A stretch of 64,000 nt of DNA from an uncultured Candidatus Binatia bacterium (GCA_965214605.1 OZ243961.1:4064001-4128000); one strand, 5' to 3'. Counted from the stretch's first letter, positions 33,879 through 50,031 are shown. Notes: generated from the sequence alone by a model not told the origin. Numbers and translations: made by a program.

Positions 33879-34142
33879 AGTCTATCCCTTCTTCCTGATC
33901 TAAGCGCGCAGGGTAGACAAAGCAGCTAATCGATTATGTGTCAAGGTTGATCTGGCAGCCCCCTGCCGACGGATAGGCACCCCCCTAGCTGCCTCCTTCA
34001 CCCGCGCTCAGTGCCAGCGGCTCAATCGAACCAGGAGGGCTCTCCTACCGGCTCATGGTGCGGAAAGTCAAGCCGCCCTTCGACCTTTTTTCCTTGCGCC
34101 CGCAGTCCAAACCACGTACACAAGAGGTTAGGAGGGCTGCCT

Positions 34143-34616
34143 ATGGAGGAATTGGATAGCTATCAGGCTCGTCGAGAAAATCTCAAACAGCGGTATTTGC
34201 CGCACGGGGAAGCCTCGGTCGGCACGGTCCCGACCGCTGGGGTCGATCATCTGGCCTTGATCTGTTCAGACCTAGAAGCCACGATTGAGTTTTACACCAC
34301 AGTGTTGGGCATGCGGCTGACCAAGATTATGGTAAACCGGGATGAGCCAAGCTCGACCCATATCTTCTTGGATATGGGTGGCGGTAATCAGCTAGCCTTT
34401 TTTGACTTTCCGAAGAAGGGGCCAGTCCGGACCACCCGGGGAGTGGGCAGCATGCATCATGTGGCGCTGAAGGCGAGTCCCGAACAGTACCGGAAGATTG
34501 TGGCCGCTTTAAAAGCCAAAGGGGCGGCCTATTCGCTGCATGGCTCCGAACAGTCGGGCTCTGTCTATGTCCGTGATCCCGATCAGATTCTGGTCGAGAT
34601 CACGACCGGATATTAA
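34143..34616 (+). CDS. VOC/glyoxalase family protein
   Basis: DHLAL, FYTTVLGM, HHVAL, SVYVRDPD..LVEI. Confidence 0.9.
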   Translation: MEELDSYQARRENLKQRYLPHGEASVGTVPTAGVDHLALICSDLEATIEFYTTVLGMRLTKIMVNRDEPSSTHIFLDMGGGNQLAFFDFPKKGPVRTTRGVGSMHHVALKASPEQYRKIVAALKAKGAAYSLHGSEQSGSVYVRDPDQILVEITTGY

Positions 34617-34627
34617 CCCATGCCCCA

Positions 34628-35302
34628 CTACGGCTGATTGGCGGCTAGGCTGTTAATAATGTCGACCGGCTCAAGCCGGTGGGTATAATCGGCATCAACG
34701 TAGGCCAATTGGATGACACCGTCCTGGCCTATGATATAGGTGGCTGGGATGGGCAACTCGTACGACGGATCGCCGTTGAAATCCGGCAGCTTGGCCCCGA
34801 TCTGATCGTACAGCGGACGTAGTTCGTCGACTAGGGCAAAAACTAGTCCGAAACTCCGGGCTGTCCGATTGCCGACATCGCTTAAAACCTCAAAGGGGAG
34901 GTCGTTCTTTTCGGCCATGGTCAAAGAGTTGTCCGGCGTCTGGGGAGAGACGGCGAGGACCGAGGCTCCGTAGGCTTGCATTGCGGCGAGGTGTTTCTTG
35001 TAAGCCTGCAACTGCAGGTTACAGTAAGGTCACCAATTGCCCCGGTAAAAAGCGAGGACGACTGGACCTTCACGCAGCAGACTGGATAGGCTGACCTGTT
35101 CGCCACGCACGTTTGGCAGACTGAAATCAGGTGCCGTGTCGCCAACCGTCAGGGCGCGGCTGGCAATGCCGGTTTTGACCAAATCTTCGGTAGTACGCTG
35201 GAGCGTACTCAGAATTTCGGCCGGGATTTTGGGCAGCATCTCTTTCTGAAACGCCTCGATGGCTTGCTTGAGCTCTTGGTTGATTCCAGTTGAGCTATCC
35301 AT
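34628..35302 (-). CDS. AhpC/TSA peroxiredoxin-like selenoprotein (Sec91, UxxC)
   Basis: Two track ORFs are in one frame, joined by TGA at 35030-35032 in FYRGNW-U-PYC (family motif FYRGxWCPYC); SECIS-like hairpin follows. Confidence 0.88.
34999..35023 (-). promoter_or_regulatory. Putative bacterial SECIS element
   Basis: TGTAA-CCTGC-AGTT-GCAGG-C-TTACA hairpin beginning 7 nt after the TGA; GTT at +18..+20. Confidence 0.7.
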
Positions 35303-35573: not shown

Positions 35574-37298
35574 ATGCAGGACGTTTTGATGCGGTGGATT
35601 TGTCAAGCCAGTCTGGCGGTCGCGCTGCTGGTGGCGCTCAGTGTCGGTGCGGTGGCCGACCAACACGCCGAATCGGATGAGGGTCTGGCGTCGGTGACCA
35701 ATGAGCGACTGCTCAAAGGAACGCTGAATGGGAGCGACTGGCTGATGTACGGCGGCAATTATGAAAGCTGGCGGTTCAGCCCGCTGACCGATATTGACCG
35801 CCACAATGTCAAAAAGCTCCAGGCCGCCTGGGTTTTTCAGACAGGTATTCCGGCCCAGCTCCAAGCCTCTCCGGTAGTGGCGGACGGGGTGCTGTATCTG
35901 ACCGCGGCCTACAACAGTTTGTTTGCCATCGACGCAGTGAGCGGCGAGATGCTGTGGAGATATGATCATCCGCTCCCAAAGGACATGCGGATCTGCTGCG
36001 GTCCGGGCAACCGGGGTCCCGCCATTGCCGGTGATCTGCTCTACATGGGCACCCTAGATGCCCGGGTGCTGGCGCTCAATCGCAAGACTGGCAAAGTGGT
36101 ATGGAATATCGAGGTGGATAATTATCGCAATGGCTTTAGCGTGACCGCCGCTCCGCTGGTGGTCAAAGATAAGATCATTGTCGGCATCGCCGGTGGCGAG
36201 TATGGCGTTCGGGGCTATCTGGACGCCTATGATGCCAAGACAGGTGAGCTGGTATGGCGTCGTTACACCATTCCCAATATGGGCGAGGCGGGGAATGAGA
36301 CTTGGGAGGGCGATTCCTGGAAGCAGGGTGGTGGGCCGACCTGGGTGACCGGATCCTACGATCCAGAAGCCGATTTACTGTATTGGGCAACCGGTAACCC
36401 GGCACCGGACTGGAACGGAGACAACCGTGAGGGCGATAATCTGTACACCAACTGTGTGCTGGCTCTGGACCCGGATACCGGCCAGCTGAAGTGGTATTTC
36501 CAATTCACACCACACGACATCTGGGATTATGACGGCAATACCGGCATGTTTCTCCTTGATGTCCAACGCGGGACAGAAACCGTCAAGGCCCTAGCGCAGC
36601 CGAACCGGAATGGCTTTTTGTACGTTCTTGACCGCCACAGCGGGAAATTTTTGCACGGCGCACGCTACGTTGAGCAGCTGAACTGGGCCAAGGGGCTTAA
36701 TGAAAACGGCCGGCCACAGGTTGACCCCAAATACGTCCCAATGAAGGGTGGTAACCCTGAGCTGATCTGCCCCGGCAATGTTGGAGGCCAGAATGGCTCC
36801 TATGCTGCGGCCTACAGCCCCACAGCACACGCGATCTTTGTGCCGACGATTGAGAGCTGCGGTAAGATGGAAAAAGCTACCGCGATGTTTATCCAGGGCG
36901 TTCCGTTTTGGGGTGGCGGCCCTGGAGAGACGCAGGGCGATCTGGGCACCGCCTATGGCCATGTCTCGGCTATTGATCCGACGAGCGGCCAGGTCAAGTG
37001 GCGCTATAAAGACAAATATCCGATGGTTGGCGGCGCATTGGCGACGGCTGGCGGTCTAGTGTTTACTGGTAATCAACAGGGCTATGCTCTGGCCTTGGAC
37101 GACACGACCGGTGAGCTGCTGTGGAAGTTCCAAACTGGCTCGACGGTACGTGGTCAGCCAATCACGTATAAAATCGGCGGACGCCAATATGTGGCAATCC
37201 CAAGCGGGGCGGGCGGTCTGGTTGTCAGCATTGTTGGCGAGAATCCCAATATCAGCAAGGGGAGCGCGCTGTTGGTGTTTGCCCTGCCCGAGGGCTAG
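35574..37298 (+). CDS. PQQ-dependent alcohol dehydrogenase (type I), candidate lanthanide-binding
   Basis: Signal peptide, vicinal CC, GGEYG, TGNPAP, HDIWDYD, repeated W-docking motifs. Confidence 0.9.
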   Translation: MQDVLMRWICQASLAVALLVALSVGAVADQHAESDEGLASVTNERLLKGTLNGSDWLMYGGNYESWRFSPLTDIDRHNVKKLQAAWVFQTGIPAQLQASPVVADGVLYLTAAYNSLFAIDAVSGEMLWRYDHPLPKDMRICCGPGNRGPAIAGDLLYMGTLDARVLALNRKTGKVVWNIEVDNYRNGFSVTAAPLVVKDKIIVGIAGGEYGVRGYLDAYDAKTGELVWRRYTIPNMGEAGNETWEGDSWKQGGGPTWVTGSYDPEADLLYWATGNPAPDWNGDNREGDNLYTNCVLALDPDTGQLKWYFQFTPHDIWDYDGNTGMFLLDVQRGTETVKALAQPNRNGFLYVLDRHSGKFLHGARYVEQLNWAKGLNENGRPQVDPKYVPMKGGNPELICPGNVGGQNGSYAAAYSPTAHAIFVPTIESCGKMEKATAMFIQGVPFWGGGPGETQGDLGTAYGHVSAIDPTSGQVKWRYKDKYPMVGGALATAGGLVFTGNQQGYALALDDTTGELLWKFQTGSTVRGQPITYKIGGRQYVAIPSGAGGLVVSIVGENPNISKGSALLVFALPEG

Positions 37299-37356: not shown

Positions 37357-38472
37357 TCAGCTCTGGGCGGCGCTCTGCCACGCCCGCCCCATTGCATCTG
37401 CCGCTAAAATCGCGTCTGCAACCATATCAGGGCTGACCTCAAACGGTTCGTTATGGATGGTCTCACCCTCGGCCGTGGCCCGGGCGGCAACCTGGGCGAG
37501 CTGCTCACGCGGCATGTCGGCCCCAAGACCGATCTCGTCCAGCGTGATGGGCAGACCGACCTGGCTGCAGAAGTGCAGAACGGGATCGATCACCGCGCGT
37601 GGCTTGCCTTCCATCACCAGCTGGGTCATCAGGCCGTAGGCCACCTTTTCTCCGTGATAGTACGGGTGGGTCTGAGCGGCTTCGGTCAGGCCGTTGTGTA
37701 CAGCGTGGGCGGCCGCCAGTCCAGACGATTCAAAGCCCAGACCGGACAACAGGGTGTTGGCCTCAACGAGACGTTCCAAGGCTGGATTGACGACATTATT
37801 TTCGACCGCCCGCAGAGCATCCGGTCCGTCTTCGACCAGGATGTTGTAACATAGTTCGGCCAGCTTCTCGGCGCTCCGGGTTGAGGCGCCACCGCGCATA
37901 TTTTGAATATGGCCTGCAACACAGGTCTTGGCTTCAAACCAGGTGGCCAGGGCATCCCCCATACCGGCGACTAGCAGGCGGGGTGGAGCCTGAGCCACCA
38001 CGTGCGTATCAACCAGCACCAGATCGGGATTCTTGCGGTAAAAACGGTATTCCTGAAAGACGCCCTGCTCGGTGTAGATAACCGACAGCGCACTACACGG
38101 TGCGTCGCTTGAGGCAATGGTCGGACAGTTGACCACCGGTAGGTTGAGGTCATCGGCCGCCGCCCGTGCGGCATCCAGCACTTTTCCACCGCCCGCGCCA
38201 ATCACCACCTGACTTTTGTTGTCCCGGGCGCTTTGCTTAATCCGTTCAATCTCGGGATATGAGCACTCGCCACCAAACTGATGTACAGCGTGACGAAGCC
38301 CGGCTTGGCTTAAATGCTGCTGCCAGACTTCGGACAGCAGCCGAATCGCGCTCCTTCCAGCAACAATCAGGGCCGGGCCCGCGAGCCCAATTCGTTGCAT
38401 TTCCGTGCCCAGTTGAGCGGTGGCGTTTTTTCCTTGGACGTAATGGCTTGGCGCCGAAAAGACCGAAAGCAT
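37357..38472 (-). CDS. gldA: Glycerol dehydrogenase (NAD/Zn)
   Basis: GGGKVLD, PTIASSDAPCSALSVIY, GMGDALATWFEA, GLAAAHAVHNG, HGEKVAYG. Confidence 0.9.
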   Translation of the reverse strand: MLSVFSAPSHYVQGKNATAQLGTEMQRIGLAGPALIVAGRSAIRLLSEVWQQHLSQAGLRHAVHQFGGECSYPEIERIKQSARDNKSQVVIGAGGGKVLDAARAAADDLNLPVVNCPTIASSDAPCSALSVIYTEQGVFQEYRFYRKNPDLVLVDTHVVAQAPPRLLVAGMGDALATWFEAKTCVAGHIQNMRGGASTRSAEKLAELCYNILVEDGPDALRAVENNVVNPALERLVEANTLLSGLGFESSGLAAAHAVHNGLTEAAQTHPYYHGEKVAYGLMTQLVMEGKPRAVIDPVLHFCSQVGLPITLDEIGLGADMPREQLAQVAARATAEGETIHNEPFEVSPDMVADAILAADAMGRAWQSAAQS

Positions 38473-38583
38473 AGCCGCCTCCTTGAGGTACGGGTCCTTA
38501 GTATACAGCCAGTCCCGGACAGTATAGACAAAGACTGGTCGGTGCGGCAAGCGAGGAAAAAAGGAAGACGGACTCGAATGCAT

Positions 38584-39438
38584 ATGAGGCAACACCTCTT
38601 ACAACTACAACGCGGCTCGGGGCGGTGGCTGTGGTGTATTGTCTGGCTCGTTGCCACCACGTGCCAGCCCGACCCTCCTGAACTCGGCAGCTATGCCTAT
38701 GGACGGCATGTCGTTGACTGTACGCCGGGAACCCGTCCGGGGCTGGCCGGCGTCCAGGATGACGAACGGTCGGCCAAGGGTATCAGCTATAATGTCCGCA
38801 CCCCGGCCAATTACGACCCACGCGTTGCCCATCCCCTGCTGATGGTCTACGCCCCGGCCGGGGTCAATCGGTTTGGCAGCGAGTCCTTGACCGATCTGAC
38901 CAAAGCGGCCACCCAGGCCGGTTTCATTATCGCCTATGCGAATCGTCGCCGTCTGTCGATCAAGGTCATTGAAGAGCTGGGGACGATTCCTGATCTGATT
39001 GCCGAAAAGTGGTGTGTTGATCCAAGGCGAATTTTTCTGACAGGCCACTCCGACGGAGGAACGGTTGCTGTTGCGCTGGCCGTCTTAGAACAAACGCAGC
39101 ATATCCCGACCGCAATCGCGCCAAGCGCGGCCGGATTCACAGCCCAGGATCTTGCCGCCTTTGCCTGCCCGGCTCCGCTGTCAGTGATGGTGATGCACGG
39201 CGCTGAGGATCGACATTTCCCCGGCTATGGCCAACAGATTGCAGACTGGTGGGCGGTCTGTAACCGCTGTGGGAGACGAGCGAGCCCACGCCGGGCTGAT
39301 GGGTGTCGCAGCTATCCTAACTGCGCCGGTGGTGTGAGGACGGTGTACTGTGAGGGAACAGGCTCCCACCTGGAGTGGCCCGGCTTCAATCCACAGCTCC
39401 TAGCCTTCTTCACTGGACTCAGCCAATATCGCCCATAA
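38584..39438 (+). CDS. PHB-depolymerase/esterase family exported alpha/beta hydrolase
   Basis: GHSDG nucleophile elbow, MHGAED, GSHLEWP; N-terminal leader. Confidence 0.8.
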   Translation: MRQHLLQLQRGSGRWLWCIVWLVATTCQPDPPELGSYAYGRHVVDCTPGTRPGLAGVQDDERSAKGISYNVRTPANYDPRVAHPLLMVYAPAGVNRFGSESLTDLTKAATQAGFIIAYANRRRLSIKVIEELGTIPDLIAEKWCVDPRRIFLTGHSDGGTVAVALAVLEQTQHIPTAIAPSAAGFTAQDLAAFACPAPLSVMVMHGAEDRHFPGYGQQIADWWAVCNRCGRRASPRRADGCRSYPNCAGGVRTVYCEGTGSHLEWPGFNPQLLAFFTGLSQYRP

Positions 39439-39583
39439 CCCGCTAAAATATAAGGATATTTTTTATCTCTGGGCAACGCTTGACATCCAGCCTGGTTTTA
39501 TTCCATATAAGAGGAACTCCGCACGGGTGGGGCCCAACATGGGTGAACTGAGAGCCGACAGTCTCAGTGGCGGATGCAATTAG

Positions 39584-40168
39584 ATGAACTGTACGAGAAA
39601 GACTGGATGGGTCAGGATGGCGTTGGCAACGCTTGGCGCGGCCCTACTGCTGGTTGGAACGCCAGCTGAGGCGCATCGAGACCGTGGACCAAACGACGCG
39701 TGTCGGCGAGAGATTGGAGCTTCGCTTCTGCACATAACGCTGTATCAGACCCAGTTCGATCCGGTTGCCGAGTACTGCGAAGAAGTCCCACGGGCGGGCA
39801 AGGCACTCATGGTTGTCGATGTGACCCCGGGCCAATTACGGGCAGTCCCCCTTGGGCTCGAAATTATCGCCACCAACGAATCGGGTCAGTCGCAGGCCGT
39901 GGTGTCGGTAGCGCCTCGGATTTATGAGCGCGGCGTGATGAATACAGAGGTGGTCTTTGTCAAGGACAAGGAGTATGTTGCCCAGGTGATGGTCGAGCTG
40001 GAAGAGGGCAAAGCGCCACAACTCCTGGCCTTTCCCATTCAGGTCGCGTCGTGGTATAAGGCAATGATGGTGCCGGGGCTGATTGTGGGTGGGGTGCTCA
40101 TCTTTGTGCTCATTTCAGTCTTCCGCTATACAATTGTCTCCCGGCAGCACAGCGAGGCGTTGGCCTAA
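39584..40168 (+). CDS. PmoD/AmoD-like copper-binding membrane-anchored protein
   Basis: Signal AEA|H, D.C......LHITLYQ......YCEEVP..G...VVD pattern, C-terminal TM helix; first gene of the CuMMO operon. Confidence 0.75.
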   Translation: MNCTRKTGWVRMALATLGAALLLVGTPAEAHRDRGPNDACRREIGASLLHITLYQTQFDPVAEYCEEVPRAGKALMVVDVTPGQLRAVPLGLEIIATNESGQSQAVVSVAPRIYERGVMNTEVVFVKDKEYVAQVMVELEEGKAPQLLAFPIQVASWYKAMMVPGLIVGGVLIFVLISVFRYTIVSRQHSEALA

Positions 40169-40216
40169 AAGAGGCATACATTAGGAGAGTGCGTCAACAA
40201 GCACAGGAGGAATACG

Positions 40217-41056
40217 ATGGCTCAGGCACAAGCGATGTCGGTATCAAGGGGATCCGGTGATGGGGCGACGATGAATCCGACCGACTGGTCGGTCGGTTGG
40301 AAACCGCTGTTCTGGGGGTGTGGGTTGGTCATGGGGGCCAACATTTTTCTGTGGTTCTGGAACTACTGGTATATGTTTACGGCCGGGCTGAACTCTGCTA
40401 GCTGGGAGTTCACGCTGTACTACCGTACGCTGTTCTGGGCGGAGTTGATCATTATCGGCGCATTCGCCGGAATCTGGCTGGGTTGGTTGATCCGGACCGG
40501 TCGAGAAATAGAGGGCCAGCCGGTTGCGCGGTCCGAACAGGTCCGGCGGATTGCTATTTTGTGGAGCCTGGTCGGCGTGACCAGCCTGTCGGTTTATCTG
40601 GAGGCCAGCTTCTGGCCAAATTGGGACGGTTCATGGCATCAAACCATGGTACGCGACACCGCGCTCACCCCAACCCACATTCCGATGTTTTATTTCTTTT
40701 TTCCACTGACCGTTGTGTTGGCCGTGGGGACCTATCTGTATGGGCGCTACCGCATTCCGAGTCTGTATGGCCGAGACAAAGGGTTTCCATGGTCGTTTGC
40801 CCTGCTGATTGCGGCGGCAGCGCTGGAATGTATGGCGGTCGCGGCCAACGAATGGGGCCATAGTCTGTGGATCTCCGAGGAGATTTTCTCGGTGCCTTTT
40901 CACTGGCCGTTTGTGATCTACGGCTGGCTGGCCAGCGGGATGTTCGCCGTCTGGGGAGAAACCATCGTCCACCTCTTCGAGATTGAGAAAGCTGAAGAAG
41001 AGGATGAGACTGACTCCCCGTCCCAGCCGGTAGAGCAACCCGTGTCTGCCGACTAA
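40217..41056 (+). CDS. pmoC: Copper membrane monooxygenase subunit C (divergent PmoC/AmoC)
   Basis: DGSWHQTMVRDTALTPTH and NEWGH...EEIF..PFHW motifs; AGGAGG RBS. Confidence 0.92.
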   Translation: MAQAQAMSVSRGSGDGATMNPTDWSVGWKPLFWGCGLVMGANIFLWFWNYWYMFTAGLNSASWEFTLYYRTLFWAELIIIGAFAGIWLGWLIRTGREIEGQPVARSEQVRRIAILWSLVGVTSLSVYLEASFWPNWDGSWHQTMVRDTALTPTHIPMFYFFFPLTVVLAVGTYLYGRYRIPSLYGRDKGFPWSFALLIAAAALECMAVAANEWGHSLWISEEIFSVPFHWPFVIYGWLASGMFAVWGETIVHLFEIEKAEEEDETDSPSQPVEQPVSAD

Positions 41057-41076
41057 TCGCCCCGTTCACCGTAGTT

Positions 41077-41106
41077 CGGTGTGGGATCGGCTGAACTCCC
41101 ACACCG
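41077..41106 (+). promoter_or_regulatory. Stem-loop between pmoC and pmoA
   Basis: cggtgtggga-N10-tcccacaccg perfect 10-bp stem followed by cttt. Confidence 0.6.
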
Positions 41107-41142
41107 CTTTATCTCAAGACCTCGCACAGAGAGGCAGCAGGC

Positions 41143-41946
41143 ATGGCAGACGCACCAGCTACAGTGACAGACCTGACGGCCGAGGCCGAACGCCAAAAAC
41201 GGCTCGAGCTTAAGGCCCTGTTGGAAAAAAAGTATAAATGGATCGATTGGAAGTGGGACCTGATCTTCTGGGTCACGGCCATCTTTGTCGTTGCTGGAGC
41301 GGCAGATATTACCAAACAGCTGTTTGCCGGTGACTGGGACTTCTGGACCGACTGGAAAGATCCCCAGTGGTGGCCGGTGGTCACCGCTTTTGCCACGATC
41401 ATCATTCCGTCTGCCCTACAGTATATCCAGTGGGTGGCGTGGCGCTTCCCCACCGGGGCAACCTACACTGCGTGTTGCATGTTTTTGGCAGCCTGGGTGG
41501 GGCGTTACTTCCAGTGGAATGTGGCCGAAACCTATCCTATGAACTTTGTGTGGCCGATCTCTATCGTCGGGGCAGGTATCCTGATGGACTGGACTCTGAT
41601 GAAAACCAAGAGTTTCATCCTCACCTCCCTCATTGGTGCACATGTCTGGGCCATTGCGGTGTGGGCCTATAATTATATTCCCCTGTCACCCTTCCTCCAA
41701 CCCGCCCACTTCATGGATCATGTCGTGACGGTCTCCGATGTCCAGGGTATTGCCTATATTCGATCGCAGACGCCGGAATATTTGCGTCTAATTGAGCGTG
41801 GTGCGCTGCGCAGCTTCCTGGGCGAAACCCAGTACGTGTCTCTGGTATTTGGCGGCACGGTCGCCTTTGCTGGGTATTGGATCGGCCAGTTCATCGGTCG
41901 CTACCTAGCGGTCTGGCCGATTAGGCGCTACTTAAAAACGCTGTGA
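41143..41946 (+). CDS. pmoA: Copper membrane monooxygenase subunit A (divergent PmoA/AmoA)
   Basis: AGDWDFWTDWKD, PTGAT, YPMNFVWP, YIRSQTPEYLRLIERGALRSF. Confidence 0.93.
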   Translation: MADAPATVTDLTAEAERQKRLELKALLEKKYKWIDWKWDLIFWVTAIFVVAGAADITKQLFAGDWDFWTDWKDPQWWPVVTAFATIIIPSALQYIQWVAWRFPTGATYTACCMFLAAWVGRYFQWNVAETYPMNFVWPISIVGAGILMDWTLMKTKSFILTSLIGAHVWAIAVWAYNYIPLSPFLQPAHFMDHVVTVSDVQGIAYIRSQTPEYLRLIERGALRSFLGETQYVSLVFGGTVAFAGYWIGQFIGRYLAVWPIRRYLKTL

Positions 41947-41953
41947 GGTCGCT

Positions 41954-42235
41954 ATGCTAAGCACAACGCAATGGAGCAAAGTCGCAGGTGCTAGCCTGGC
42001 CGCCCTGCTCGCAACGCCGTCACTCGGACACGCCCATGGCATAGGACTGGACGAAATGGCCCCTCCTGTAGTAACGGCAATCCTGCTTGGTCTGGCGTGT
42101 TACTGGCTGATGGTGCTGTGGCCCGCCGGGAGACACACTAAGCTCCCGTCGTTTGAGACGCCGGTCAGCGAAAAGATTCGGATCAAACAGAAGCCGCGCC
42201 TGCGGGTGGTGGAGAGGAGACTGGTCGATGACTAA
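41954..42235 (+). CDS. Small membrane protein inserted between pmoA and pmoB
   Basis: GAGG RBS, signal peptide ending GHA|HG, one TM helix, basic tail; overlaps the pmoB start. Confidence 0.6.
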   Translation: MLSTTQWSKVAGASLAALLATPSLGHAHGIGLDEMAPPVVTAILLGLACYWLMVLWPAGRHTKLPSFETPVSEKIRIKQKPRLRVVERRLVDD

Positions 42236-43487
42236 GTGGGCGACCGGGCAGGTCCTGCTTGGCCTGATGCTTTTCGGCTGGACTGCCGTGATCGGTGTTC
42301 CTCAATGTTTTGCCCATGGCGAGGCCGCAGATGAGCCTTTCCTGAAAAACCTAACAACCGCGTTTTTCGACGTGTCGGTGTCTCCGACCGAAATTCAGGT
42401 CGGCGAGCCGGTCACTATCACCGGTAAGGTCCAGATCCTGGAGACCTGGCCGCACACGCTCTACCCCCCGGAAATCGCCTCTATCATGCCGGTGGTCCCC
42501 GGACCGGTGTTTCTGCTCAAGGAGCGAACAGTCAACGGGGAATCCTCAATCGGTTCGTTTTTTGTTGAAAAGGGTGGAATTTACGAGTTCCGCATGGTGC
42601 TCATCGGCAAAGAACCCGGCGAATGGCATGTACATCCTGGGATTGCCATCCATGGAACCGGAACGCTCATCGGCCCGGCTGAATGGGTCAACGTAGCGCC
42701 TAGCACAACCCCACTCGAATTTCCGGTGACCCTGCTGAGCGGTGAGACCATTGAACTGAGTAGTTACGGCGGAAGCTTCGTTGTCTGGTGGTCATTTCTC
42801 GGCTTTGGACTGGGTCTTGTCTGGATGTTGTATTGGACCCTGACCAAGAGAACCGTCACAAACCTAGCCGTGACCCTCCAGATTCCCCCTAACGATGACG
42901 CGCCTGATCTGGGTCTCATTACCCCACGTGACCATATGTGGATGAACGTGATCGCCGGGGCTGCGCTCATCATGCTGGTAGCCGGCTGGACCTATGCAAC
43001 GACGAGCTATCCGGTCAGATGGCCGCAACAGACCGACTGGTTCACGCCAGAATTGATCTCACCGGGACCGAAAATGGCCGAGGTGCGGGCTACCGGGGCG
43101 ACGTTTGATGAGGGGACCGAGACGCTAGAGATGGACGTCCGGGTCACGAACGTTGACGACAGCCCGATCACAGTGAAGAAATACACGATGGCAATGGCCA
43201 GCTTTGTCAACGGTGGCGAACAAGAACAGGCCGCCGCGGGACCGCGCGATTTTGTCGGGACCCTCAACGTCGCCCCCAACGTTCCGATCGAACCGGGCCA
43301 GACTCAAGAGCTGAGTCTCAGCATTTCGAGCGCCTTGTTCGGCACCGAACGCCTGATTCCGCTCAGCGCCCCGCAGCAATATATCGCCGGTGTCTTCCAG
43401 TTTGAGAACTCAGACGGCGAGCAGGAGTTGGTCACGGTCCGCTCAGGCCTCATCCCAACCCGCTTCACCCCCCAGTATCTGCCCTAG
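42228..43487 (+). CDS. pmoB: Copper membrane monooxygenase subunit B (divergent PmoB/AmoB)
   Basis: Signal FA|HGEAADEPFL, WHVHP....GTGTLIGPAEW, two TM helices, C-terminal cupredoxin-like domain; GAGGAG RBS before ATG 42228. Confidence 0.92.
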   Translation: MTKWATGQVLLGLMLFGWTAVIGVPQCFAHGEAADEPFLKNLTTAFFDVSVSPTEIQVGEPVTITGKVQILETWPHTLYPPEIASIMPVVPGPVFLLKERTVNGESSIGSFFVEKGGIYEFRMVLIGKEPGEWHVHPGIAIHGTGTLIGPAEWVNVAPSTTPLEFPVTLLSGETIELSSYGGSFVVWWSFLGFGLGLVWMLYWTLTKRTVTNLAVTLQIPPNDDAPDLGLITPRDHMWMNVIAGAALIMLVAGWTYATTSYPVRWPQQTDWFTPELISPGPKMAEVRATGATFDEGTETLEMDVRVTNVDDSPITVKKYTMAMASFVNGGEQEQAAAGPRDFVGTLNVAPNVPIEPGQTQELSLSISSALFGTERLIPLSAPQQYIAGVFQFENSDGEQELVTVRSGLIPTRFTPQYLP

Positions 43488-43516
43488 GCCCACCGGTCGG
43501 GGAGGTCTGCATATCG

Positions 43517-44107
43517 GTGTGGATCGGCATCTTCCTGTCACTTATCTGGCCGACTGTGCTCCTCCTCGCACCGCTCCCACTGTGGGCGCACGGCGGGGTT
43601 GGGATTGAGCAAGACACGTGTGTCGAGCGAGCTGGTCCATCGTTGATTCATTTTGTTGCTTATCAACCCGAGCTGAGTCCAAGCCAAGAGTTCTGTACCC
43701 GCTTGCCCCAGGTCGGGAGCACGATCCTTGTTTTTGATTTGATTGACGAGGTCGTCCGCAAACGTCCGGCAAGTCTGCGGGTAGTAGAAACCGGTACTAC
43801 GGCTGAGCCCCGTACCCTGCTCCATATTCCGGCTCAAACATATCTGAATGGGGTGCTCAACGCCGAGCTCACATTTGACGAGCCGGGCCACTACGCGGCA
43901 GTGGTGACGCTGGAGAATCCGTATCAGCAGATCACATTTCCGTTTCGCGTTGGACGGTGGTCGGTTCAGCTCCTGGTGGTGCTCAGCGGCCTCGTTTGTG
44001 GCGCGCTTGGCGGCTATTTCTTCTTCCGGGGCAAAAAGAAGCCGCCGCAGCTTAGGCGGTTGAAAAGCTACCCCCCCTTTTCCTACTCGTCATCTCCCCA
44101 TACATAG
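43517..44107 (+). CDS. Second PmoD/AmoD-like protein
   Basis: WA|HGGVGIEQDTC.....IHFVAYQP.....EFC..LP..G...VFDL; C-terminal TM helix. Confidence 0.78.
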   Translation: MWIGIFLSLIWPTVLLLAPLPLWAHGGVGIEQDTCVERAGPSLIHFVAYQPELSPSQEFCTRLPQVGSTILVFDLIDEVVRKRPASLRVVETGTTAEPRTLLHIPAQTYLNGVLNAELTFDEPGHYAAVVTLENPYQQITFPFRVGRWSVQLLVVLSGLVCGALGGYFFFRGKKKPPQLRRLKSYPPFSYSSSPHT

Positions 44108-44108
44108 A

Positions 44109-45821
44109 GTGCTTATGTCTCCGTCTCGTCTTCTGAAAGTGTCGATGCTGGTCCTGGTCCTGCTTGGCGCTGCGGTGTTTTTGCTGCCGCGTTCTTGGCT
44201 GCCGCAGACTGTCCAAGATTTGCTATATGCATCTTTCGGAGAATCCCCGTATCGACGTCCGCCGGACACTACAGACATAGAACTCGGCCTGGCTGAGCCG
44301 TTCTGCCCGGATCTTCACCCAGACTGGCGCCAACAGCAGGTCGTGGCCGGTATCACGATTGAGGAATCACTGGTGTGTGAGCCGGACAATCCGGCTGAGG
44401 TGGCCGCCTTTGTCAGAGGCACCAACAATGTACCGCTGGCAGTCCTCATGCAAACCCGGCTGACCCCAACGACGGTGGTCAAAGACGAGGACCGGGATGG
44501 AGACGGTGACCCTGACGTGATTCATATCCGTCTTGAAGTTGCCGAACTCAACGGTCGTTCGCCGGATATTCCGGATCCCTTTCCGCGCTATGCCATCGCT
44601 CCTGGAGTGCAGCCTGGGCTATGGGTCTTTGCTCCTAAAACACGCGGTATGGCGACCGAAAACTTTGACACCGACGTGGCCAACCCCAGCCTGCGTGCTC
44701 CGGCTCCAGTCATTCGTGTGGAACAGGGCGACCGCCTCCGGCTGACATTGGAAAACACCCATTATTTGCCCCATACAATCCATCTACACGGAGTCGATCA
44801 CCCCTTTGTCGACAGCAATGGCGAGGGCAATGATGGCGTCCCTATCGCCAGTGAACAACCCGTGCTTCCGGGCCAAAGTCGGACCTATGATCTGACTCCG
44901 CGCCAGACCGGCACTATGTTTTATCACTGCCATGTACAACCTAACGTCCATATTTTGATGGGCTTACAGGGGATGTTTGTGGTTGAGGAAAATCTGCCCA
45001 ACAATTGGGTACAGACGCTCAACCCAGGCGCCGGACGGGTGCGTTTTCCTTCGCAAGGTGTCCGCCGGACGTACGACCGCGAGTATGATCTGCACTACCA
45101 AGACCTGGATCACACTCTGCACGAGGTGATTCAAACGGCCAATGACCCCCGGCTGGTGGCCGAGGCCACCAGCCGCCGCTACGATATTACCGATCAGACG
45201 CCCGATTATTTTGTCCTTAACGGCCGTTCGTTTCCGTATACCATTCGGGAGTCCCTGGTGGTCGTCAAAACTAACCAGGACGTGAAACTGCGCGTGCTGA
45301 ACGGAGGGGCAGAGGGGATTGCTCTGCACACCCACGGCCACAAAATCAGGATTACCCATTACGACGGTGTGGAGCATAATCCGGCCGCCCAGATTACCCG
45401 CGATGTAGTCTGGCTAGGTCCCGCCCAACGGCTTGATTTACACCTGCGGACGGTCAACGATGGGCTCCACAACTACGGACCGGGCGTGTGGTTGTTGCAC
45501 GACCACAAAGAGAAAGGCGTGACCACAAACGGCATCAATCCGGGCGGTAATATCAGCGCGATTGTGTACGAATCTTTCTTGGCCGAAGCCGGCTGGCCGA
45601 AGACACAGGGCATGGACTGGACGCCATTTTTCAGCCAGGCCTACTATCAGAAGAAAGTCCCGGTCTGGAGCACCCTCGACGACTCGAGTCTGCTCGGTCA
45701 AGCCGCCAGCCGGACCCCGGGTTGGGGCCGTGCAGCGCTTCTTGGGCTGCTAAGCGGGCTCCTGCTCGGCGGGCTGGCGGCTCGGCTGCGCTCTGTGTTT
45801 CAACGTCCACCAAGGGGCTAG
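44109..45821 (+). CDS. Membrane-anchored multicopper oxidase
   Basis: HTIHLHG, YHCH....H..MG, HTHGH, LHDH copper motifs; N- and C-terminal hydrophobic anchors. Confidence 0.88.
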   Translation: MLMSPSRLLKVSMLVLVLLGAAVFLLPRSWLPQTVQDLLYASFGESPYRRPPDTTDIELGLAEPFCPDLHPDWRQQQVVAGITIEESLVCEPDNPAEVAAFVRGTNNVPLAVLMQTRLTPTTVVKDEDRDGDGDPDVIHIRLEVAELNGRSPDIPDPFPRYAIAPGVQPGLWVFAPKTRGMATENFDTDVANPSLRAPAPVIRVEQGDRLRLTLENTHYLPHTIHLHGVDHPFVDSNGEGNDGVPIASEQPVLPGQSRTYDLTPRQTGTMFYHCHVQPNVHILMGLQGMFVVEENLPNNWVQTLNPGAGRVRFPSQGVRRTYDREYDLHYQDLDHTLHEVIQTANDPRLVAEATSRRYDITDQTPDYFVLNGRSFPYTIRESLVVVKTNQDVKLRVLNGGAEGIALHTHGHKIRITHYDGVEHNPAAQITRDVVWLGPAQRLDLHLRTVNDGLHNYGPGVWLLHDHKEKGVTTNGINPGGNISAIVYESFLAEAGWPKTQGMDWTPFFSQAYYQKKVPVWSTLDDSSLLGQAASRTPGWGRAALLGLLSGLLLGGLAARLRSVFQRPPRG

Positions 45822-45824
45822 CCT

Positions 45825-46688
45825 GTGGTGATCTTTTTCCTGGCTGTGTTTGCTGTCTGCGTATTTCCTGCGCTGGGTTTGAGCCAAGAAACCGCGCCAC
45901 GCGCGCCTCAGGTCCACACCGATCACCGAATGGATGCTGAGCCGCATGCCGATCACCGAATGGATGCTGAGCCGCATGCCGATCACCGAATGGATGCTGA
46001 GCCGCATGCCGATCACCGAATGGATGCTGAGCCGCATGCCGATCACCGAATGGATGCTGAGCCGCATGCCGATCACCAAGTCCATGAGCATCACGCTATG
46101 CGGCTGGACGCCTCAGGTATGGTTATGAATGAAAACACCGACGAACTGCCGCGAGGCTGTCCACGCATCGCTGGCGAACAACATATCACCGTCCGCGCCG
46201 GTAAGGAATTTGCGCGGGATTTTTCAGGCACGATGTTCACCTATGACCAGCGAGAGTGGGCGGTCGAACCGTGTACACAGCTCACCGTCAGCCTGATCAA
46301 TACCGATGAGGTTCGCCACCAATGGATGTTGCATGGTCTGCCCCGCTATCTGTATGACCAGGGTATGTTCACCCTGGAGGTCGCGGGAAAAGGTCAGAAA
46401 ACCGCCAGCTTTATCGTGCCGCCGGGAAGCAAGACGTATCTGGTCCATTGTGACGTGCCACACCATATGGAAAAAGGGATGAAAGCCCAGTTAAAGGTCG
46501 GTGGTGGGGATGGCGATTTGCCGAGTATCCCGGGGATTACCGGCCCCCGCCTGGAAGATCCCTATCTGTTTGAGTGGGGGTGGACAGGAATAGGGTTGAC
46601 CCTTGTTGGCGGGCTGCTTGGTCTAGTCCTAGCCAGCAGAGGACCGGGTCTGCTGCGACAGGTGCGGGTGAAACAAATACGCAAGTGA
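45825..46688 (+). CDS. Cupredoxin-domain protein with His/Met-rich N-terminal repeat
   Basis: Signal peptide, (DHRMDAEPHA)x5, RHQWM, HCDVPHHMEKGM type-1 Cu motif, C-terminal TM helix. Confidence 0.85.
   Translation: MVIFFLAVFAVCVFPALGLSQETAPRAPQVHTDHRMDAEPHADHRMDAEPHADHRMDAEPHADHRMDAEPHADHRMDAEPHADHQVHEHHAMRLDASGMVMNENTDELPRGCPRIAGEQHITVRAGKEFARDFSGTMFTYDQREWAVEPCTQLTVSLINTDEVRHQWMLHGLPRYLYDQGMFTLEVAGKGQKTASFIVPPGSKTYLVHCDVPHHMEKGMKAQLKVGGGDGDLPSIPGITGPRLEDPYLFEWGWTGIGLTLVGGLLGLVLASRGPGLLRQVRVKQIRK
45919..46077. repeat. Perfect 30-bp tandem repeat, about 5.3 copies, in frame
   Basis: gatcaccgaatggatgctgagccgcatgcc x5 from 45921. Confidence 0.97.
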
Positions 46689-46707
46689 AATTAAAAAGGA
46701 GGCCGTT

Positions 46708-47568
46708 ATGAAAGTAGGAATCTTTGAGTTCGCCATCGACCGGTCCGTCGATCCAGCCCTTGTGGCCAAGCGGACCGAGGAGCTGGGCTTCGCCTCGTAC
46801 TGGGTCCCGGAGCATCCGATTATTCCGATACAGACCACCTCACCCTATCCGGGCGCTGAGGACGGGATTATTCCGGACGAGTATGGGCGCATTCTCGACC
46901 CATTCGTGGCCCTGGCCAGGGCTTCGGCAGTCACTCGCACAATTGAGTTGGGGACCGGCATTTGCCTTATTCCTGAGCGGAATCCGCTGCTACTAGCCAA
47001 AGAAGTAGCGACCCTGGATAAGCTGTCGGGCGGCCGTTTTATTCTGGGGATTGGCGCCGGCTGGCTCAGAGAAGAAACCGAGATCATGGGCGGGGATTTT
47101 GCTCATCGCTGGAGCCAGACCAGGGACGGAGTCTTGGCTATGAAGGAGCTGTGGACCCAAGATGAAGCCGAGTATCACGGGAAGTTCTACGACTTTCCGG
47201 CCGTGCGATCTTTCCCCAAGCCGGTCCGGAAACCGCATCCACCGGTGTATATGGGTGGCTCGTCGAAGTATGTGTTCAAGCGTGTGGTGGAGTGGGGCGA
47301 CGGCTGGATGCCGGTCCTGTCGCCGCTCGAAGACATTAAGGCTGGTCGCCAACGCCTGAATGAGATGGCCGAACAGGTGGGCCGTGATCCCAAGTCTATC
47401 CAGGTGCTGGCCTTTGGTTTTCCCGGCAAATATCGGACCCGCCAGGAACTGGCCGAACTCCAGGACGCAGGCGTCGATCATGTCACCATCTGGCTGCAGG
47501 AGTGTGACAACGGTGAGGCCGCCGCGCTGGCCGAGTTGGACGGCCTGGCCAAAGAGGCCCTGGCGTAG
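46708..47568 (+). CDS. LLM-class F420-dependent oxidoreductase
   Basis: WVPEH, LDPFVAL, LGTGI, LDKLSGGRFILGIGAGW. Confidence 0.92.
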   Translation: MKVGIFEFAIDRSVDPALVAKRTEELGFASYWVPEHPIIPIQTTSPYPGAEDGIIPDEYGRILDPFVALARASAVTRTIELGTGICLIPERNPLLLAKEVATLDKLSGGRFILGIGAGWLREETEIMGGDFAHRWSQTRDGVLAMKELWTQDEAEYHGKFYDFPAVRSFPKPVRKPHPPVYMGGSSKYVFKRVVEWGDGWMPVLSPLEDIKAGRQRLNEMAEQVGRDPKSIQVLAFGFPGKYRTRQELAELQDAGVDHVTIWLQECDNGEAAALAELDGLAKEALA

Positions 47569-49314
47569 CACACTTCTCAGTCCTTCTAGACCAGCCGCAC
47601 TGGGGAGAAACCGTTTGTCAGCGACTTGGCCGACCTCTTGGAGTCTTCTTGCCGCAAGGAGTCTCGGGACCGTCATCGCTTGTGTCCCTCTGCCAAGAGC
47701 GATGCCGGCCCGCACCTAAGGAAGAAGCGGCCCTCGCAAGGCTGGGTGAGAACGTTGTCTGAGCCTCTTACGCTCGCCGATAGGCATCCCCCATCCTAAG
47801 AGAACCTGCAGCAGCAAGGCCAGGGCGAGTAAAGCTTTTATCTGGCTTTAGGCCCGAGGTTTTTCAATTCCATGGCAGAGCTCGCTTTCCAATCTGTCGT
47901 ATCGGCTGTTTGATGCCCTCTAGTGCAGGCTTGCGCGCGGACACGGCCGTCACGTCGCAAAGGAGCCTATTGATGGTTGCTTCGGAGTCCCTTTATTGGG
48001 TCTTCAGTCTATCCGCCTGTTGTTGGGCTTAGTGCATCACCATGCGTTCGTGCAGTTTTTTCCGTAGGGGGACGATTTCGCGACCGCGCTGCGGATTGTT
48101 CTCGTGTCGACTGAGGAATTCATGAACGCTTGCAATATTGGCTCTTTGGTGTCGGTTGAGTCCTGCTAGATCTCCCGGTGTCTGTCTTGAGGTATTACTG
48201 AGCCTGCTAGATAGCCTCTTCGACCATCTGAGCTTGGGGCTTGCTAGGGTTCACACTGTTCAGCACCTCAAAGATGAGCTCGAAGTAGACAACGAATCCT
48301 ACCGGCCGTGATAATGATGTACCGGAAGGCTCTGCAGCGGCGAAAAAGTCGTTCCTCTTCATCGCGTTCCTTATACTTCTCGGGGCCAGCCGTCCCAGGG
48401 GGTGATTGCGCTTCGGCGGCACGATCGGAAACGTCCCGAACTCCCCCCCGCGATACCGAGTCACCGCGTCCGCAATAGGGGCGCGGTCCATCACCCCATA
48501 GTCGTCCACAGCGGAGTCCGGGCCAGCAGCTTACGACCCTCAGGCGCAGTGCCGGCCGGCCTGGGCGACACCGCAACACTGACGGCCAAATCAGCATCCA
48601 CAACAGGTCCCGCGGCACTTGTCGATGGTTTGCAGCCCATTTTTTACGTCCCCACCCCGGCCGCATGTCCTGGCTCTCCACACCACTTCCAGAGCCCTGC
48701 TCTAGCCCGTACAAAATCGCTGACAGTCCTGTCCGAGTGTCTACCTTGACGTTCCTCCGCTGAGGTGGGAGCAGCTCTATGTTCTCTCACATTGCTGCTG
48801 GGGAGGGGTCTCGGCGCTGAACCTAGCTCCTGTGGAGAATAGGATCCCCGGTCCTGGGCGCGAACGCAAACCGGATGGATCGCGACGCGGGCGGGATAAG
48901 ATATTGGGCCTATCCATGGCGCTTCTGGATTCCGCTCCATCCGGTCGCCTCAGCTTAGTCTACGGTCATAAGTTGGGGCCCTTGATCCCTTCGTGGCTCT
49001 TGCCAGGGTCGTACGCGACTTCTGCCGTCTAGCGGCTCAGCACCGCCCTTCCCTTTTTCAAAAATGAATTTCTGATGGTGTCAAATCAACGCCGAGACCA
49101 CTTGCTCCGCACTGCAAGCCCCGCTCCAACCATCGCCGAGGTGCATCATATCGTGGGCGGGGTGGCCTGCCAGAGGTTGCAGCCTATTCCCCCCAAAGCG
49201 TGACACAAGAGAGTGACCTCTCCCATTTTATGCCCTTGACATAGCCCGGCGGTGGGATAGATGAGAGGAGGACGAAGCGGGTTGTATCCGTTTCTCGCCA
49301 AAGGAGCCGTGACC

Positions 49315-49629
49315 ATGATCTATGAACTACGGACGTATCAGCTCGCGTTTGGCGGGCTGCCGGAATATCTGGAGGTGGCCAAAACAATGATTCTGCCCGG
49401 CGTTGCCGAGCATGGCCTTAAGCCGGTCGGATTTTGGTACACCGAGGTTGGTCAGCTCAACGAAGTCTGCCATCTGTGGGCCTATCAGGATTTGAACGAA
49501 CGCCAGGAGAAATGGGCTAAATGGGCGCGCGACCCTCGTCGCGCCGAGGTCGGCAAACGTCTGCGGGGAGTCATTCTCAGCCAGACCAATAAGATCTTAT
49601 CTCCGACTGAGTTTTCGGCCCTGCAATAA
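49315..49629 (+). CDS. NIPSNAP family protein
   Basis: MIYELRTY, GFWYTEVG.LN...HLWAY, L.PTEFS. Confidence 0.9.
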   Translation: MIYELRTYQLAFGGLPEYLEVAKTMILPGVAEHGLKPVGFWYTEVGQLNEVCHLWAYQDLNERQEKWAKWARDPRRAEVGKRLRGVILSQTNKILSPTEFSALQ

Positions 49630-49637
49630 GCCTACAG

Positions 49638-50021
49638 ATGGAAGCCCGCCTTGTGCTGAGAGATTGTCACTCTGCCTCGGGTCTGGGCGGTTTGCGGGTC
49701 TGGCGCCTGAGTCTGCCGCTCTCGTTGTTTGTCAGTCTGACCTGTCAGCCGCTGCCACCGCCCGATGTGTTTATCGGTTATGGGGAGGTGAAGCAGGTTG
49801 TTCACCACGATCAACGGGTGGTGATTGCGCATGAGGCGATCCCCGATTTTTTTCCGGCAAAAACGAGCAGTTTTGCCCTCCGCTCACCAGCCCTGGCCGA
49901 CGCCTGCGTACCTGGACAGCGCGTCCGCTTCACGCTGGAACGCACCCCGCAGACCCTCTATCTGATAGCGGTCCAAAACGTTCCCCTGGTCGCGCCGCCG
50001 GTAGAGCCTGACACCGATTGA
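49638..50021 (+). CDS. CusF-like copper-binding periplasmic protein (degenerate)
   Basis: GEV......VVIAHEAIPDFFPAKT..F ... GQRVRFTL; the usual Met ligands are absent. Confidence 0.55.
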   Translation: MEARLVLRDCHSASGLGGLRVWRLSLPLSLFVSLTCQPLPPPDVFIGYGEVKQVVHHDQRVVIAHEAIPDFFPAKTSSFALRSPALADACVPGQRVRFTLERTPQTLYLIAVQNVPLVAPPVEPDTD

Positions 50022-50031
50022 ACAAAATACC

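Follow-up and report, generated by a model that had tools for sequence, protein, structure and literature searches.

A divergent copper membrane monooxygenase with a clade-wide residue signature in an uncultured Candidatus Binatia bacterium

In a 64,000-nucleotide stretch of DNA from an uncultured Candidatus Binatia bacterium (GCA_965214605.1 OZ243961.1:4064001-4128000; hereafter the window, meaning the whole stretch that was analysed), positions 40217..43487 carry pmoC, pmoA and pmoB, the subunit genes of a copper membrane monooxygenase (CuMMO). Sequence comparisons indicate that the cluster encodes an intact, divergent CuMMO in which the ligands of all three accepted copper sites (CuB, CuC and CuD) are present and under strongly purifying selection. 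The residues remodelled around these ligands are not a one-off but the fixed signature of a deep, well-supported clade that includes Actinomycetota, Dormibacterota and Caldinitratiruptor, and the enzyme itself can be assigned to a published, uncharacterised lineage of Binatia CuMMOs. As to substrate, we lean tentatively towards a short-chain alkane or alkene.

PmoC, PmoA and PmoB each scored above the gathering threshold of the corresponding Pfam family (scores are given with the feature list below), and the three intact reading frames are contiguous on the + strand. The same proteins missed the NCBIfam equivalog cut-offs for particulate methane monooxygenase (pMMO; TIGR03078/03079/03080), with scores of 138.7 versus 280.6 for subunit C, 162 versus 318.15 for subunit A (CH4_NH3mon_ox_A) and 203.1 versus 394.9 for subunit B, as well as those for bacterial ammonia monooxygenase (AMO; NF041641/NF041557/NF041640), with 158.5 versus 319, 192.6 versus 290 (AmoA_BACT) and 268.2 versus 336, respectively. 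Strong Pfam matches combined with wide misses of all six equivalog cut-offs point to a real but divergent CuMMO. The possibility of a decaying relic was rejected, since no frame is broken and neither ligand nor signature residues vary among ~70-78 homologues; this invariance, across 72 PmoC, 78 PmoA and 70 PmoB sequences, also indicates that the residue pattern is not due to chance.

We read individual residues from alignments to solved pMMO chains (3CHX/3RFR/4PHZ for PmoC, 1YEW_B for PmoA and 3RGB_A for PmoB) and counted conservation over the window together with all loci whose coverage reached 85% or more. PmoC retains both the CuC ligands (D137, H141 and H154) and the CuD ligands (N211, H215 and H229); for the Bath enzyme, we assumed the numbering of these ligands. 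Its segments asfwpNWDgswH and tptHIPMFY align with asfftEQDgtwH and tpsHIIEFY, and aaNEWGH...pfHwp aligns with glNEWGH...plHwg, leaving NEWGH and the next His (CuD) unaltered. The resulting signature, P134-N135-W136-D137 and H154-I-P-M157-F-Y, was invariant in 72/72 Binatia-type sequences. For PmoA, agaaDITKQlfaGDWDFW aligns with vgsyHIHAMltmGDWDFW of M. capsulatus Bath (1YEW_B) and flAAWvgR with llGEWinR; A117 occupies the place of the GEW Glu, G120 that of Asn103, and R121 is kept. The signature A53-A-D55-I-T57-K58 thus stands in place of the HxHxM stretch, with D55 and T57 found in 78/78 sequences.

The CuB site of PmoB was likewise retained: cfaHGE and geWHVHpg align with saHGE and gdWHVHtm of 3RGB_A, so that H30, H134 and H136 correspond to H33, H137 and H139 of that chain, and all three were present in each of 70 sequences. 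These positions count from the likely ATG start at 42228, which gives a normal signal peptide ending in QCFA before HGE, with predicted cleavage just ahead of the His; the open reading frame (ORF) opens at TTG 42153, in which numbering the ligands are H55, H159 and H161. The bis-His site of Bath PmoB is absent, its residues being F and Q. The original prediction had described this same combination, namely a PmoC with CuC and CuD ligands kept while EQD reads NWD and HIIEFY reads HIPMFY, a PmoA lacking both HxHxM (DITKQ) and the GEW Glu (AAW), and a PmoB with an intact CuB His brace; its readings and its motifs agree with the alignments to solved structures. The enzyme would carry out copper-dependent hydroxylation, as other CuMMOs do.

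The distribution of these residues was followed in two samples. A word-indexed protein search returned 203 relatives, the best 87% identical, with named relatives at 61-72% from Caldinitratiruptor, Carbonactinospora, Lentzea, Dormibacterota and metagenome-assembled genomes (MAGs) of Actinomycetes. A genome scan using one genome per species found 486 encoding stretches, and the best 80 of these, retained as genome loci, had PmoA identities of 74-96% and were nearly all titled Candidatus Binatia, Binataceae or Deltaproteobacteria MAGs; the closest, Ca. Binatia MAGs with PmoA identity up to 96%, also have flanking genes in common with the window, which accordingly belongs to a Binatia bacterium. 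The second sample comprised 80 metagenome loci picked to favour the non-Binatia part of the clade. Across this wider clade the PmoC signature loosens to N-x-D (x = Q, S, A or E) and H-I-(P/I/V)-M-F, a pattern present in all 43 informative PmoC sequences of the less similar, non-Binatia-like loci, every one of which keeps the CuC and CuD ligands. D55 of PmoA was found in 78/80 metagenome loci. A second, very different CuMMO PmoA type, 247 aa long and 37% identical to the window PmoA, was also seen (P0233 and P0380-P0393), and some relatives may carry two CuMMO types.

Not all of the remodelling is peculiar to this clade. The HIIEFY Glu is Leu in HmoC of the hydrocarbon monooxygenases (HMOs) of M. 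chubuense NBB4 and Rhodococcus WAY2 and Val in PxmC, while the GEW Glu is replaced by Gln in both HmoA and a Methylacidiphilum representative and by Thr in PxmA, so that both changes are common outside pMMO and AMO. Both the PmoC Glu (EED/EQD) and the first PmoA His persist in HMO and Pxm. Judged by these alignments, only the change of PmoC Glu to Asn (EQD to N-x-D) and that of PmoA His to Asp (AADITK) are specific to the window clade. The substitutions do mark a clade without a characterised member, but two of the four sets are shared with HMO and Pxm, whose specificity is another.

The residues lost from PmoA belong to a disputed site. His38, Met42, Glu100 and Asn103 of PmoA (Bath numbering), together with Arg104, line the trinuclear 'CuE' site of Chan, which is modelled in 7EV9 and at which quantum refinement found copper to be unsupported (PMC12576850); the window PmoA retains the Arg104 equivalent as R121. 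According to present structural studies, the active site is probably CuC/CuD in subunit C (PMC11725843, PMC13058606), and HMO activity is lost on mutating C-subunit ligands (PMC13058606). The 'CuE/tricopper' site is not an accepted copper site, and because CuB, CuC and CuD are all intact, none of the accepted metal sites is naturally knocked out in this enzyme. This removes the natural test of which metal sites are essential that had been proposed for this locus. Rather, the clade is further evidence that a CuMMO can do without the PmoA 'CuE' residues and still be kept under selection. Asp55, Thr57 and Lys58 of PmoA and Asn135 of PmoC, which replace the His/Met/Glu hydrophilic patch of pMMO, would form a structural polar network at the PmoA-PmoC interface and not a metal site.

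In order to place the clade, we used a maximum-likelihood PmoA tree of 114 rows, whose rows comprise PxmA, 44 sequences of the window clade, 49 that a search with NBB4 HmoA had returned and 20 representing 50% clusters. The tree covers proteins of 225-320 residues, leaving out fragments and fused proteins beyond that range, and was built without named proteobacterial PmoA/AmoA, archaeal AmoA, Nocardioides CF8, SAR324 or TUSC references; of its ~20 usable full-length representatives, one is named to organism (Methylacidiphilum, P0260) and three others carry MAG titles only. The window clade received 100/100 support on a stem of 0.8 substitutions per site. The clade of M. chubuense NBB4 HmoA and Rhodococcus WAY2 is separate and also has 100/100 support. 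As the window PmoA falls outside the clade holding NBB4 HmoA, it is not a member of the actinobacterial HmoCAB/BmoCAB group as represented in this tree, among whose rows CF8 and SAR324 do not figure.

By its close identity to Ca. Binatia genes and its CAxB gene order, in which a small gene, x, lies between pmoA and pmoB, the window cluster falls instead within the published Binatia CuMMO lineage. Murphy et al. 2021 described Binatota CuMMOs in two clades, TUSC and 'Actinobacteria/SAR324', with gene orders CAB, CAxB and CAxxB, pmoD in 5/11 genomes and conserved PmoB histidines, and left methane versus gaseous alkanes undecided (PMC8262859). A Danish survey preprint counts 'Putative pmoA Binatales' and TUSC among hydrocarbon monooxygenases (10.64898/2026.02.02.703227), Binatia genes in Slate River MAGs are nearer proposed butane monooxygenases (PMC11264602), and Binatota appear among HMO-bearing phyla (PMC12533140). 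The description of the enzyme as highly divergent is thus accurate as to sequence and overstates its novelty, since the lineage is already in print (PMC8262859, 10.64898/2026.02.02.703227, PMC11264602). Leaving aside supplements (for example Fig. S1 of Murphy et al.), which may show alignments, we found no published account of the clade-wide AADITK and N-x-D / H-I-x-M-F signatures, nor of what characterises the conserved His-first protein x, of the pairing of PmoD genes or of the two kinds of neighbourhood described below.

The CuMMO genes are part of a set of nine closely packed genes on the + strand (39584-47568); the cluster itself has the order pmoD-pmoC-pmoA-x-pmoB-pmoD-multicopper oxidase-cupredoxin, with a divergent GldA gene and a pyrroloquinoline quinone (PQQ) alcohol dehydrogenase gene upstream. 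The features are as follows:

35574..37298, + strand: PQQ-dependent alcohol dehydrogenase of the ethanol-dehydrogenase (PedE/PedH-like) type, TIGR03075
37357..38595, - strand: GldA-type glycerol/1,2-propanediol dehydrogenase, NF006941
39584..40168, + strand: pmoD-1, PmoD/AmoD-family periplasmic copper protein
40217..41056, + strand: pmoC, Pfam AmoC, 146.6 bits (cut-off 26.7), E 1e-42
41143..41946, + strand: pmoA, Pfam AMO, 182.9 bits (cut-off 27.5), E 1.2e-53
41954..42235, + strand: x, conserved small membrane protein of 93 aa
42228..43487, + strand: pmoB, Pfam Monooxygenase_B, 261.7 bits (cut-off 22.7), E 1.7e-77
43517..44107, + strand: pmoD-2, second PmoD-family paralogue
44109..45821, + strand: multicopper oxidase, 570 aa, Pfam Cu-oxidase_3, Cu-oxidase_2 and Cu-oxidase
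45825..46688, + strand: membrane-anchored cupredoxin-like protein, weak Pfam Cu-oxidase_2 match, E 3.7e-4

The operon genes are co-directional and tightly spaced. A sigma-70 and terminator consensus scan of 38500-48300 was uninformative, with three promoter-like sites against 4.0 expected, none of them ahead of the operon, and terminator-like sites scattered within genes. The genome to which the window belongs (4.37 Mb, 9 contigs, 99.99% complete) carries one CuMMO copy only.

The original prediction had rightly placed three CuMMO ORFs within 40217..43487 and overlooked a fourth conserved ORF there, x (41954-42235). Protein x has a signal peptide with predicted cleavage at GHA|HG (A-x-A|H-G), one transmembrane helix and a basic C-terminal tail, and neither Pfam nor NCBIfam gave it a match above threshold. 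The x and pmoB frames overlap by 8 nt, from the pmoB ATG to the x stop. A tblastn match to x lay between pmoA and pmoB in 75/80 genome loci, with the ORF recovered in 73, and A27, H28, P37, P38, Y50, W56 and P57 were invariant in 48/48 sequences. Among 51 loci of the non-Binatia part of the clade with both pmoA and pmoB, the gap between the two is at most 55 nt in 42, leaving no room for x, and 244-296 nt in seven, at least three of which have an x-like ORF. Native-membrane cryo-electron microscopy has revealed supernumerary single-helix subunits beside PmoC and AmoC (PMC11725843), making x a reasonable candidate for a fourth subunit, and by this analogy it is probably a supernumerary transmembrane subunit. 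A complex prediction for PmoC, PmoA, PmoB and mature x gave a score of 0.21, under the mark of 0.32, and has no bearing either way on binding. At one related Binatia locus (L047:7266-8891), no stop separates x from pmoB and the two are read as one open frame of 541 aa, which would be a natural x-PmoB fusion if not an assembly error.

On either side of the monooxygenase genes lie two ~195-aa proteins that can be assigned to the PmoD/AmoD family, both having a signal peptide, a cupredoxin-like domain, two invariant Cys residues and a transmembrane helix at the C-terminus. PmoD-1 has a predicted mature N-terminus at His31 and the motif C40-x7-L-x-H50-x14-C65, with H31, D38, C40, L48, H50 and C65 invariant. 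A 30-homologue PmoD profile that includes pmoD-2 matched PmoD in the Protein Data Bank (PDB) entry 6CPD with E 8.8e-19, and an AlphaFold2 model of PmoD-1 (pLDDT 85.2; helices at 7-24 and 157-193) returned 6cpd_A as the top Foldseek match (E 5e-9, TM-score 0.75). Early leads for pmoD-1 ('hypothetical protein' clusters and a weak YtkA match, 0.89) were superseded by the PmoD match, and the idea that pmoD-1 and pmoD-2 constitute a new family was dropped after the 6CPD matches. PmoD-2, with a predicted mature N-terminus at LWA|HGG, is 28% identical to PmoD-1 (E 7e-22). Homologues of pmoD-1 were found upstream of pmoC in 45 loci and homologues of pmoD-2 downstream of pmoB in 19. The CuA-forming PmoD subclass is defined by the motif Cx7MxHxnC (Fisher et al. 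2018, PMC6189053); the window motif, Cx7LxH without the Met, lies outside it. In soil Binataceae (L034-L055, for example L039:4277-5530), the upstream PmoD-like region is part of a 417-aa ORF with a SCO1/SenC domain at residues 260-388.

The multicopper oxidase has the two-domain enzymes 2ZWN and 3G5W as its best PDB matches. The adjoining cupredoxin-like protein carries a C-x2-P-H-x4-M motif resembling a type-1 copper site, where it weakly matches the blue copper protein 6KOL (E 0.52), and contains five perfect HADHRMDAEP repeats (DNA 45919-46077; period 30 bp, 5.3 copies, 100% matches), a His/Asp/Met-rich stretch that, by its composition, could bind metal. The PmoD paralogues, the multicopper oxidase and the cupredoxin would probably serve copper supply or electron transfer.

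We compared neighbourhoods over 60 loci of at least 12 kb, comprising the 22 closest to the window and 38 others. The closest group is characterised by the multicopper oxidase and the cupredoxin-like protein (both 22/22), the upstream PmoD (22/22), GldA (18/22) and the PQQ alcohol dehydrogenase (17/22). In the other 38, none of which have this set (the multicopper oxidase, for instance, in 0/38), we found a 522-aa GMC oxidoreductase (32/38) and Sco1 (34/38). Of the 60 loci, 51 have GldA or the GMC oxidoreductase no more than 6.5 kb from the operon. The PQQ alcohol dehydrogenase scored 594 bits against a TIGR03075 cut-off of 480 and best matched the P. putida-type quinoprotein ethanol dehydrogenases 6ZCV/6ZCW (433/429 bits), with XoxF/MxaF at 282-345 bits; it has a D-Y-D motif, which we take to be a lanthanide signature. 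GldA scored 493 bits against an NF006941 cut-off of 336 and matched PDB glycerol dehydrogenases at up to 372 bits, with alignments beginning at residue 42-45, and its true start is probably ~41 codons downstream of the ORF start. We found no match to Fae or Mch in the 99.99% complete genome, which together with the ethanol-type dehydrogenase argues against a dedicated methanotroph, although it does not settle the substrate.

Several other genes near the cluster were noted. An AhpC/TSA peroxiredoxin is split over two adjacent - strand ORFs (34628-35011 and 35030-35302, matching Pfam profile positions 1-37 and 45-122) and has the look of a gene with a frameshift or interruption, or else of an error in sequencing. 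An esterase-like ORF with a GHSDGG motif (38314-39438, + strand) weakly matches a short-chain polyhydroxyalkanoate depolymerase model (46.9 bits against a cut-off of 150) and is conserved upstream of pmoD-1 in those loci closest to the window; as annotated, its start overlaps gldA, and the real one is probably later. About 2 kb past the cluster, 49261-51195 holds genes for NIPSNAP, for a CusF-like copper-binding protein of the periplasm and for LarC-type nickel insertion; the CusF gene may be part of the same copper-handling theme.

With regard to function, we favour, tentatively and ahead of any other single explanation, a working CuMMO of the Binatia lineage whose substrate is a C2-C4 compound, neither methane nor ammonia, most likely a short-chain alkane or alkene. 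Like other CuMMOs, the enzyme would form a membrane (CAB)3 trimer; it would activate O2 at the CuC/CuD centre of PmoC with electrons from the quinol pool and hydroxylate a small hydrophobic molecule, and the neighbouring PedH-like PQQ dehydrogenase would oxidise the alcohol product in the periplasm. C2-C4 hydrocarbons are favoured by the proximity to HMO and by the ethanol-type dehydrogenase. HMO oxidises C2-C4 alkanes and ethylene and requires its C-subunit ligands (PMC4678205, PMC13058606), and published trees set the Binatia sequences beside butane or hydrocarbon monooxygenases (PMC8262859, 10.64898/2026.02.02.703227, PMC11264602). The remodelled residues had themselves been thought to imply a different substrate, which is plausible, yet the residues do not show it. 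A number of considerations weigh against an alkane or alkene. The call draws on weak phylogenetic proximity and on neighbouring genes; the PmoA tree does not settle the window clade as sister to HMO (deciding split 86/92); the structural role suggested for Asp55, Lys58 and Asn135 is read from sequence; and the genome has, above the family cut-off, five PQQ alcohol dehydrogenases in total, of which the four further ones could be methanol dehydrogenases. In addition, work on sponge Binatota reports transcription of the gene and takes it as a methane monooxygenase (PMC9999580), and the conserved GldA (18/22) and GMC (32/38) enzymes act on diols or hydroxy-ketones, not simple alcohols, and so fit a ketone substrate better.

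A ketone (acetone or butanone) monooxygenase resembling Methylacidiphilum PMO3 is accordingly a close rival, possible but somewhat less probable in our estimation. By this route, the PQQ dehydrogenase would convert 2-propanol to acetone and the CuMMO acetone to acetol, which would then pass to GldA in the window subgroup or to the GMC oxidoreductase in soil Binataceae. The PMO3 CuMMO has pmoD, glyoxalase I, lactate dehydrogenase and an acetol dehydrogenase of the GMC oxidoreductase family as cluster neighbours (PMC8630023), and the recurrent GldA or GMC gene in our loci recalls that arrangement, as do the match of GldA to glycerol/1,2-propanediol dehydrogenase models, the PmoD genes on both sides of the operon and a glyoxalase/VOC-family gene at 34011-34616. 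However, that VOC gene is 7 kb away and below every NCBIfam cut-off, GMC and GldA are broad families, and the Methylacidiphilum sequence P0260 (any one of three paralogues) sits across the tree at the end of a long branch, so that any likeness would be convergent. The at least 120 GMC homologues listed are all of the Binataceae type (77-93% identity) and do not inform orthology with the Methylacidiphilum/Methylocella acetol dehydrogenase; moreover, with the Binataceae query we found no such GMC oxidoreductase in the window's genome, and we found no published link between a Binatia CuMMO and acetone. A bolder version, which we consider a long shot, is that the AADITK / N-x-D clade constitutes a functionally new class of CuMMOs, of an origin separate from PMO3, which hydroxylates small oxygenates (acetone or related ketones) and not hydrocarbons, with a four-subunit enzyme in the Binatia branch in which x sits beside PmoC with a periplasmic N-terminal His; that His could be an extra copper-binding or copper-delivery element acting with the two His-first PmoD paralogues. 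Unlikelier still is a pMMO in a methanotroph, the published interpretation for sponge Binatota, where Ramirez et al. call the organism a methane sink (PMC9999580). Methane was also left possible for this type by Murphy et al. (PMC8262859), the five PQQ dehydrogenases belong to the methanol/ethanol family, and the CuB, CuC and CuD ligands are all present. Against these stand the scores far under the pMMO equivalog cut-offs, the replaced PmoA hydrophilic patch, the lack of a Fae or Mch match, the ethanol type of the adjoining dehydrogenase, the separation of the clade from Pxm and P0260 in a tree built without named proteobacterial PmoA, and the Danish survey, in which Binatia MAGs with such genes, placed among hydrocarbon monooxygenases, have incomplete methane-processing modules (10.64898/2026.02.02.703227). 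That the enzyme oxidises ammonia is highly improbable: the top NCBIfam matches by score are the bacterial AmoA/B/C models and the operon multicopper oxidase resembles the two-domain enzyme of N. europaea (3G5W), yet every Amo model is far under cut-off, and nitrification by Binatia is not reported in those parts of the literature that we found.

The choice among these substrates matters because surveys of soil, sediment and sponges score Binatia CuMMO genes as 'pmoA' and deduce methane sinks from them, an inference that would be wrong if the enzyme acts on C2-C4 hydrocarbons or ketones. AADITK in PmoA, together with N-x-D and H-I-x-M-F in PmoC and retained CuB, CuC and CuD ligands, provide markers by which these genes can be told from true pmoA. 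The substrate is directly testable in cultured members of the clade (Carbonactinospora, Caldinitratiruptor and Lentzea), and supernumerary CuMMO subunits and copper delivery could be approached by genetics through x and the paired PmoD genes.

Compared with known systems, the window enzyme is alike in fold and subunits, by sequence, to pMMO of Bath and of Methylocystis/Methylosinus (PDB 1YEW, 3RGB, 7S4H, 3CHX, 3RFR and 4PHZ; E 1e-28 to 1e-56), and its CuB, CuC and CuD ligands are identical. It differs in that His38, His40, Met42, Glu100 and Asn103 of pMMO are Asp, Thr, Gln, Ala and Gly in the window PmoA, the Glu-Gln before the CuC Asp of PmoC is Asn-Trp, the HIIEFY Glu is Met, and the bis-His site is missing. 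HMO (NBB4 and its WAY2 homologue) shares with the window the CAB gene order, the CuB and CuC/CuD ligands and the lack of the GEW and HIIEFY Glu residues, at identities of 40-45% for PmoA, 35-38% for PmoC and 31% for PmoB (40-42%, 38% and 31% for NBB4 alone). Unlike the window enzyme, it retains Glu in PmoC (EED/EQD) and, in PmoA, the Met and one His (YHLNQM), and the NBB4 and WAY2 loci have no x-like match, their annotated pmoA and pmoB being 4-26 bases apart. The Methylacidiphilum PMO3 cluster likewise sets a divergent CuMMO beside pmoD and C3 hydroxy-ketone/diol dehydrogenases (PMC8630023), but its partners are GmcAB and lactate dehydrogenase where the window has GldA and the PQQ alcohol dehydrogenase, and the named Methylacidiphilum PmoA (P0260, of whichever paralogue) is only 32% identical and far off in the tree.

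The accessory proteins show a similar mixture of likeness and difference. Relative to PmoD/AmoD (6CPD; PMC6189053), the window adds an invariant predicted N-terminal His and the invariant Asp38. Like the supernumerary helices of 23 aa in Methylocystis sp. Rockwell pMMO and 46 aa in N. europaea AMO (PMC11725843), x is a small protein with a single membrane pass and a genetic tie to a CuMMO; unlike them, it is encoded inside the operon, is longer (~66 aa when mature), carries a cleavable signal peptide and has, at its predicted N-terminus, an invariant His. Closest of all are the published Binatota/Binatia CuMMO operons, which share with the window the CAxB order with a hypothetical x, pmoD, and the equivalents of PmoB His33, His137 and His139.

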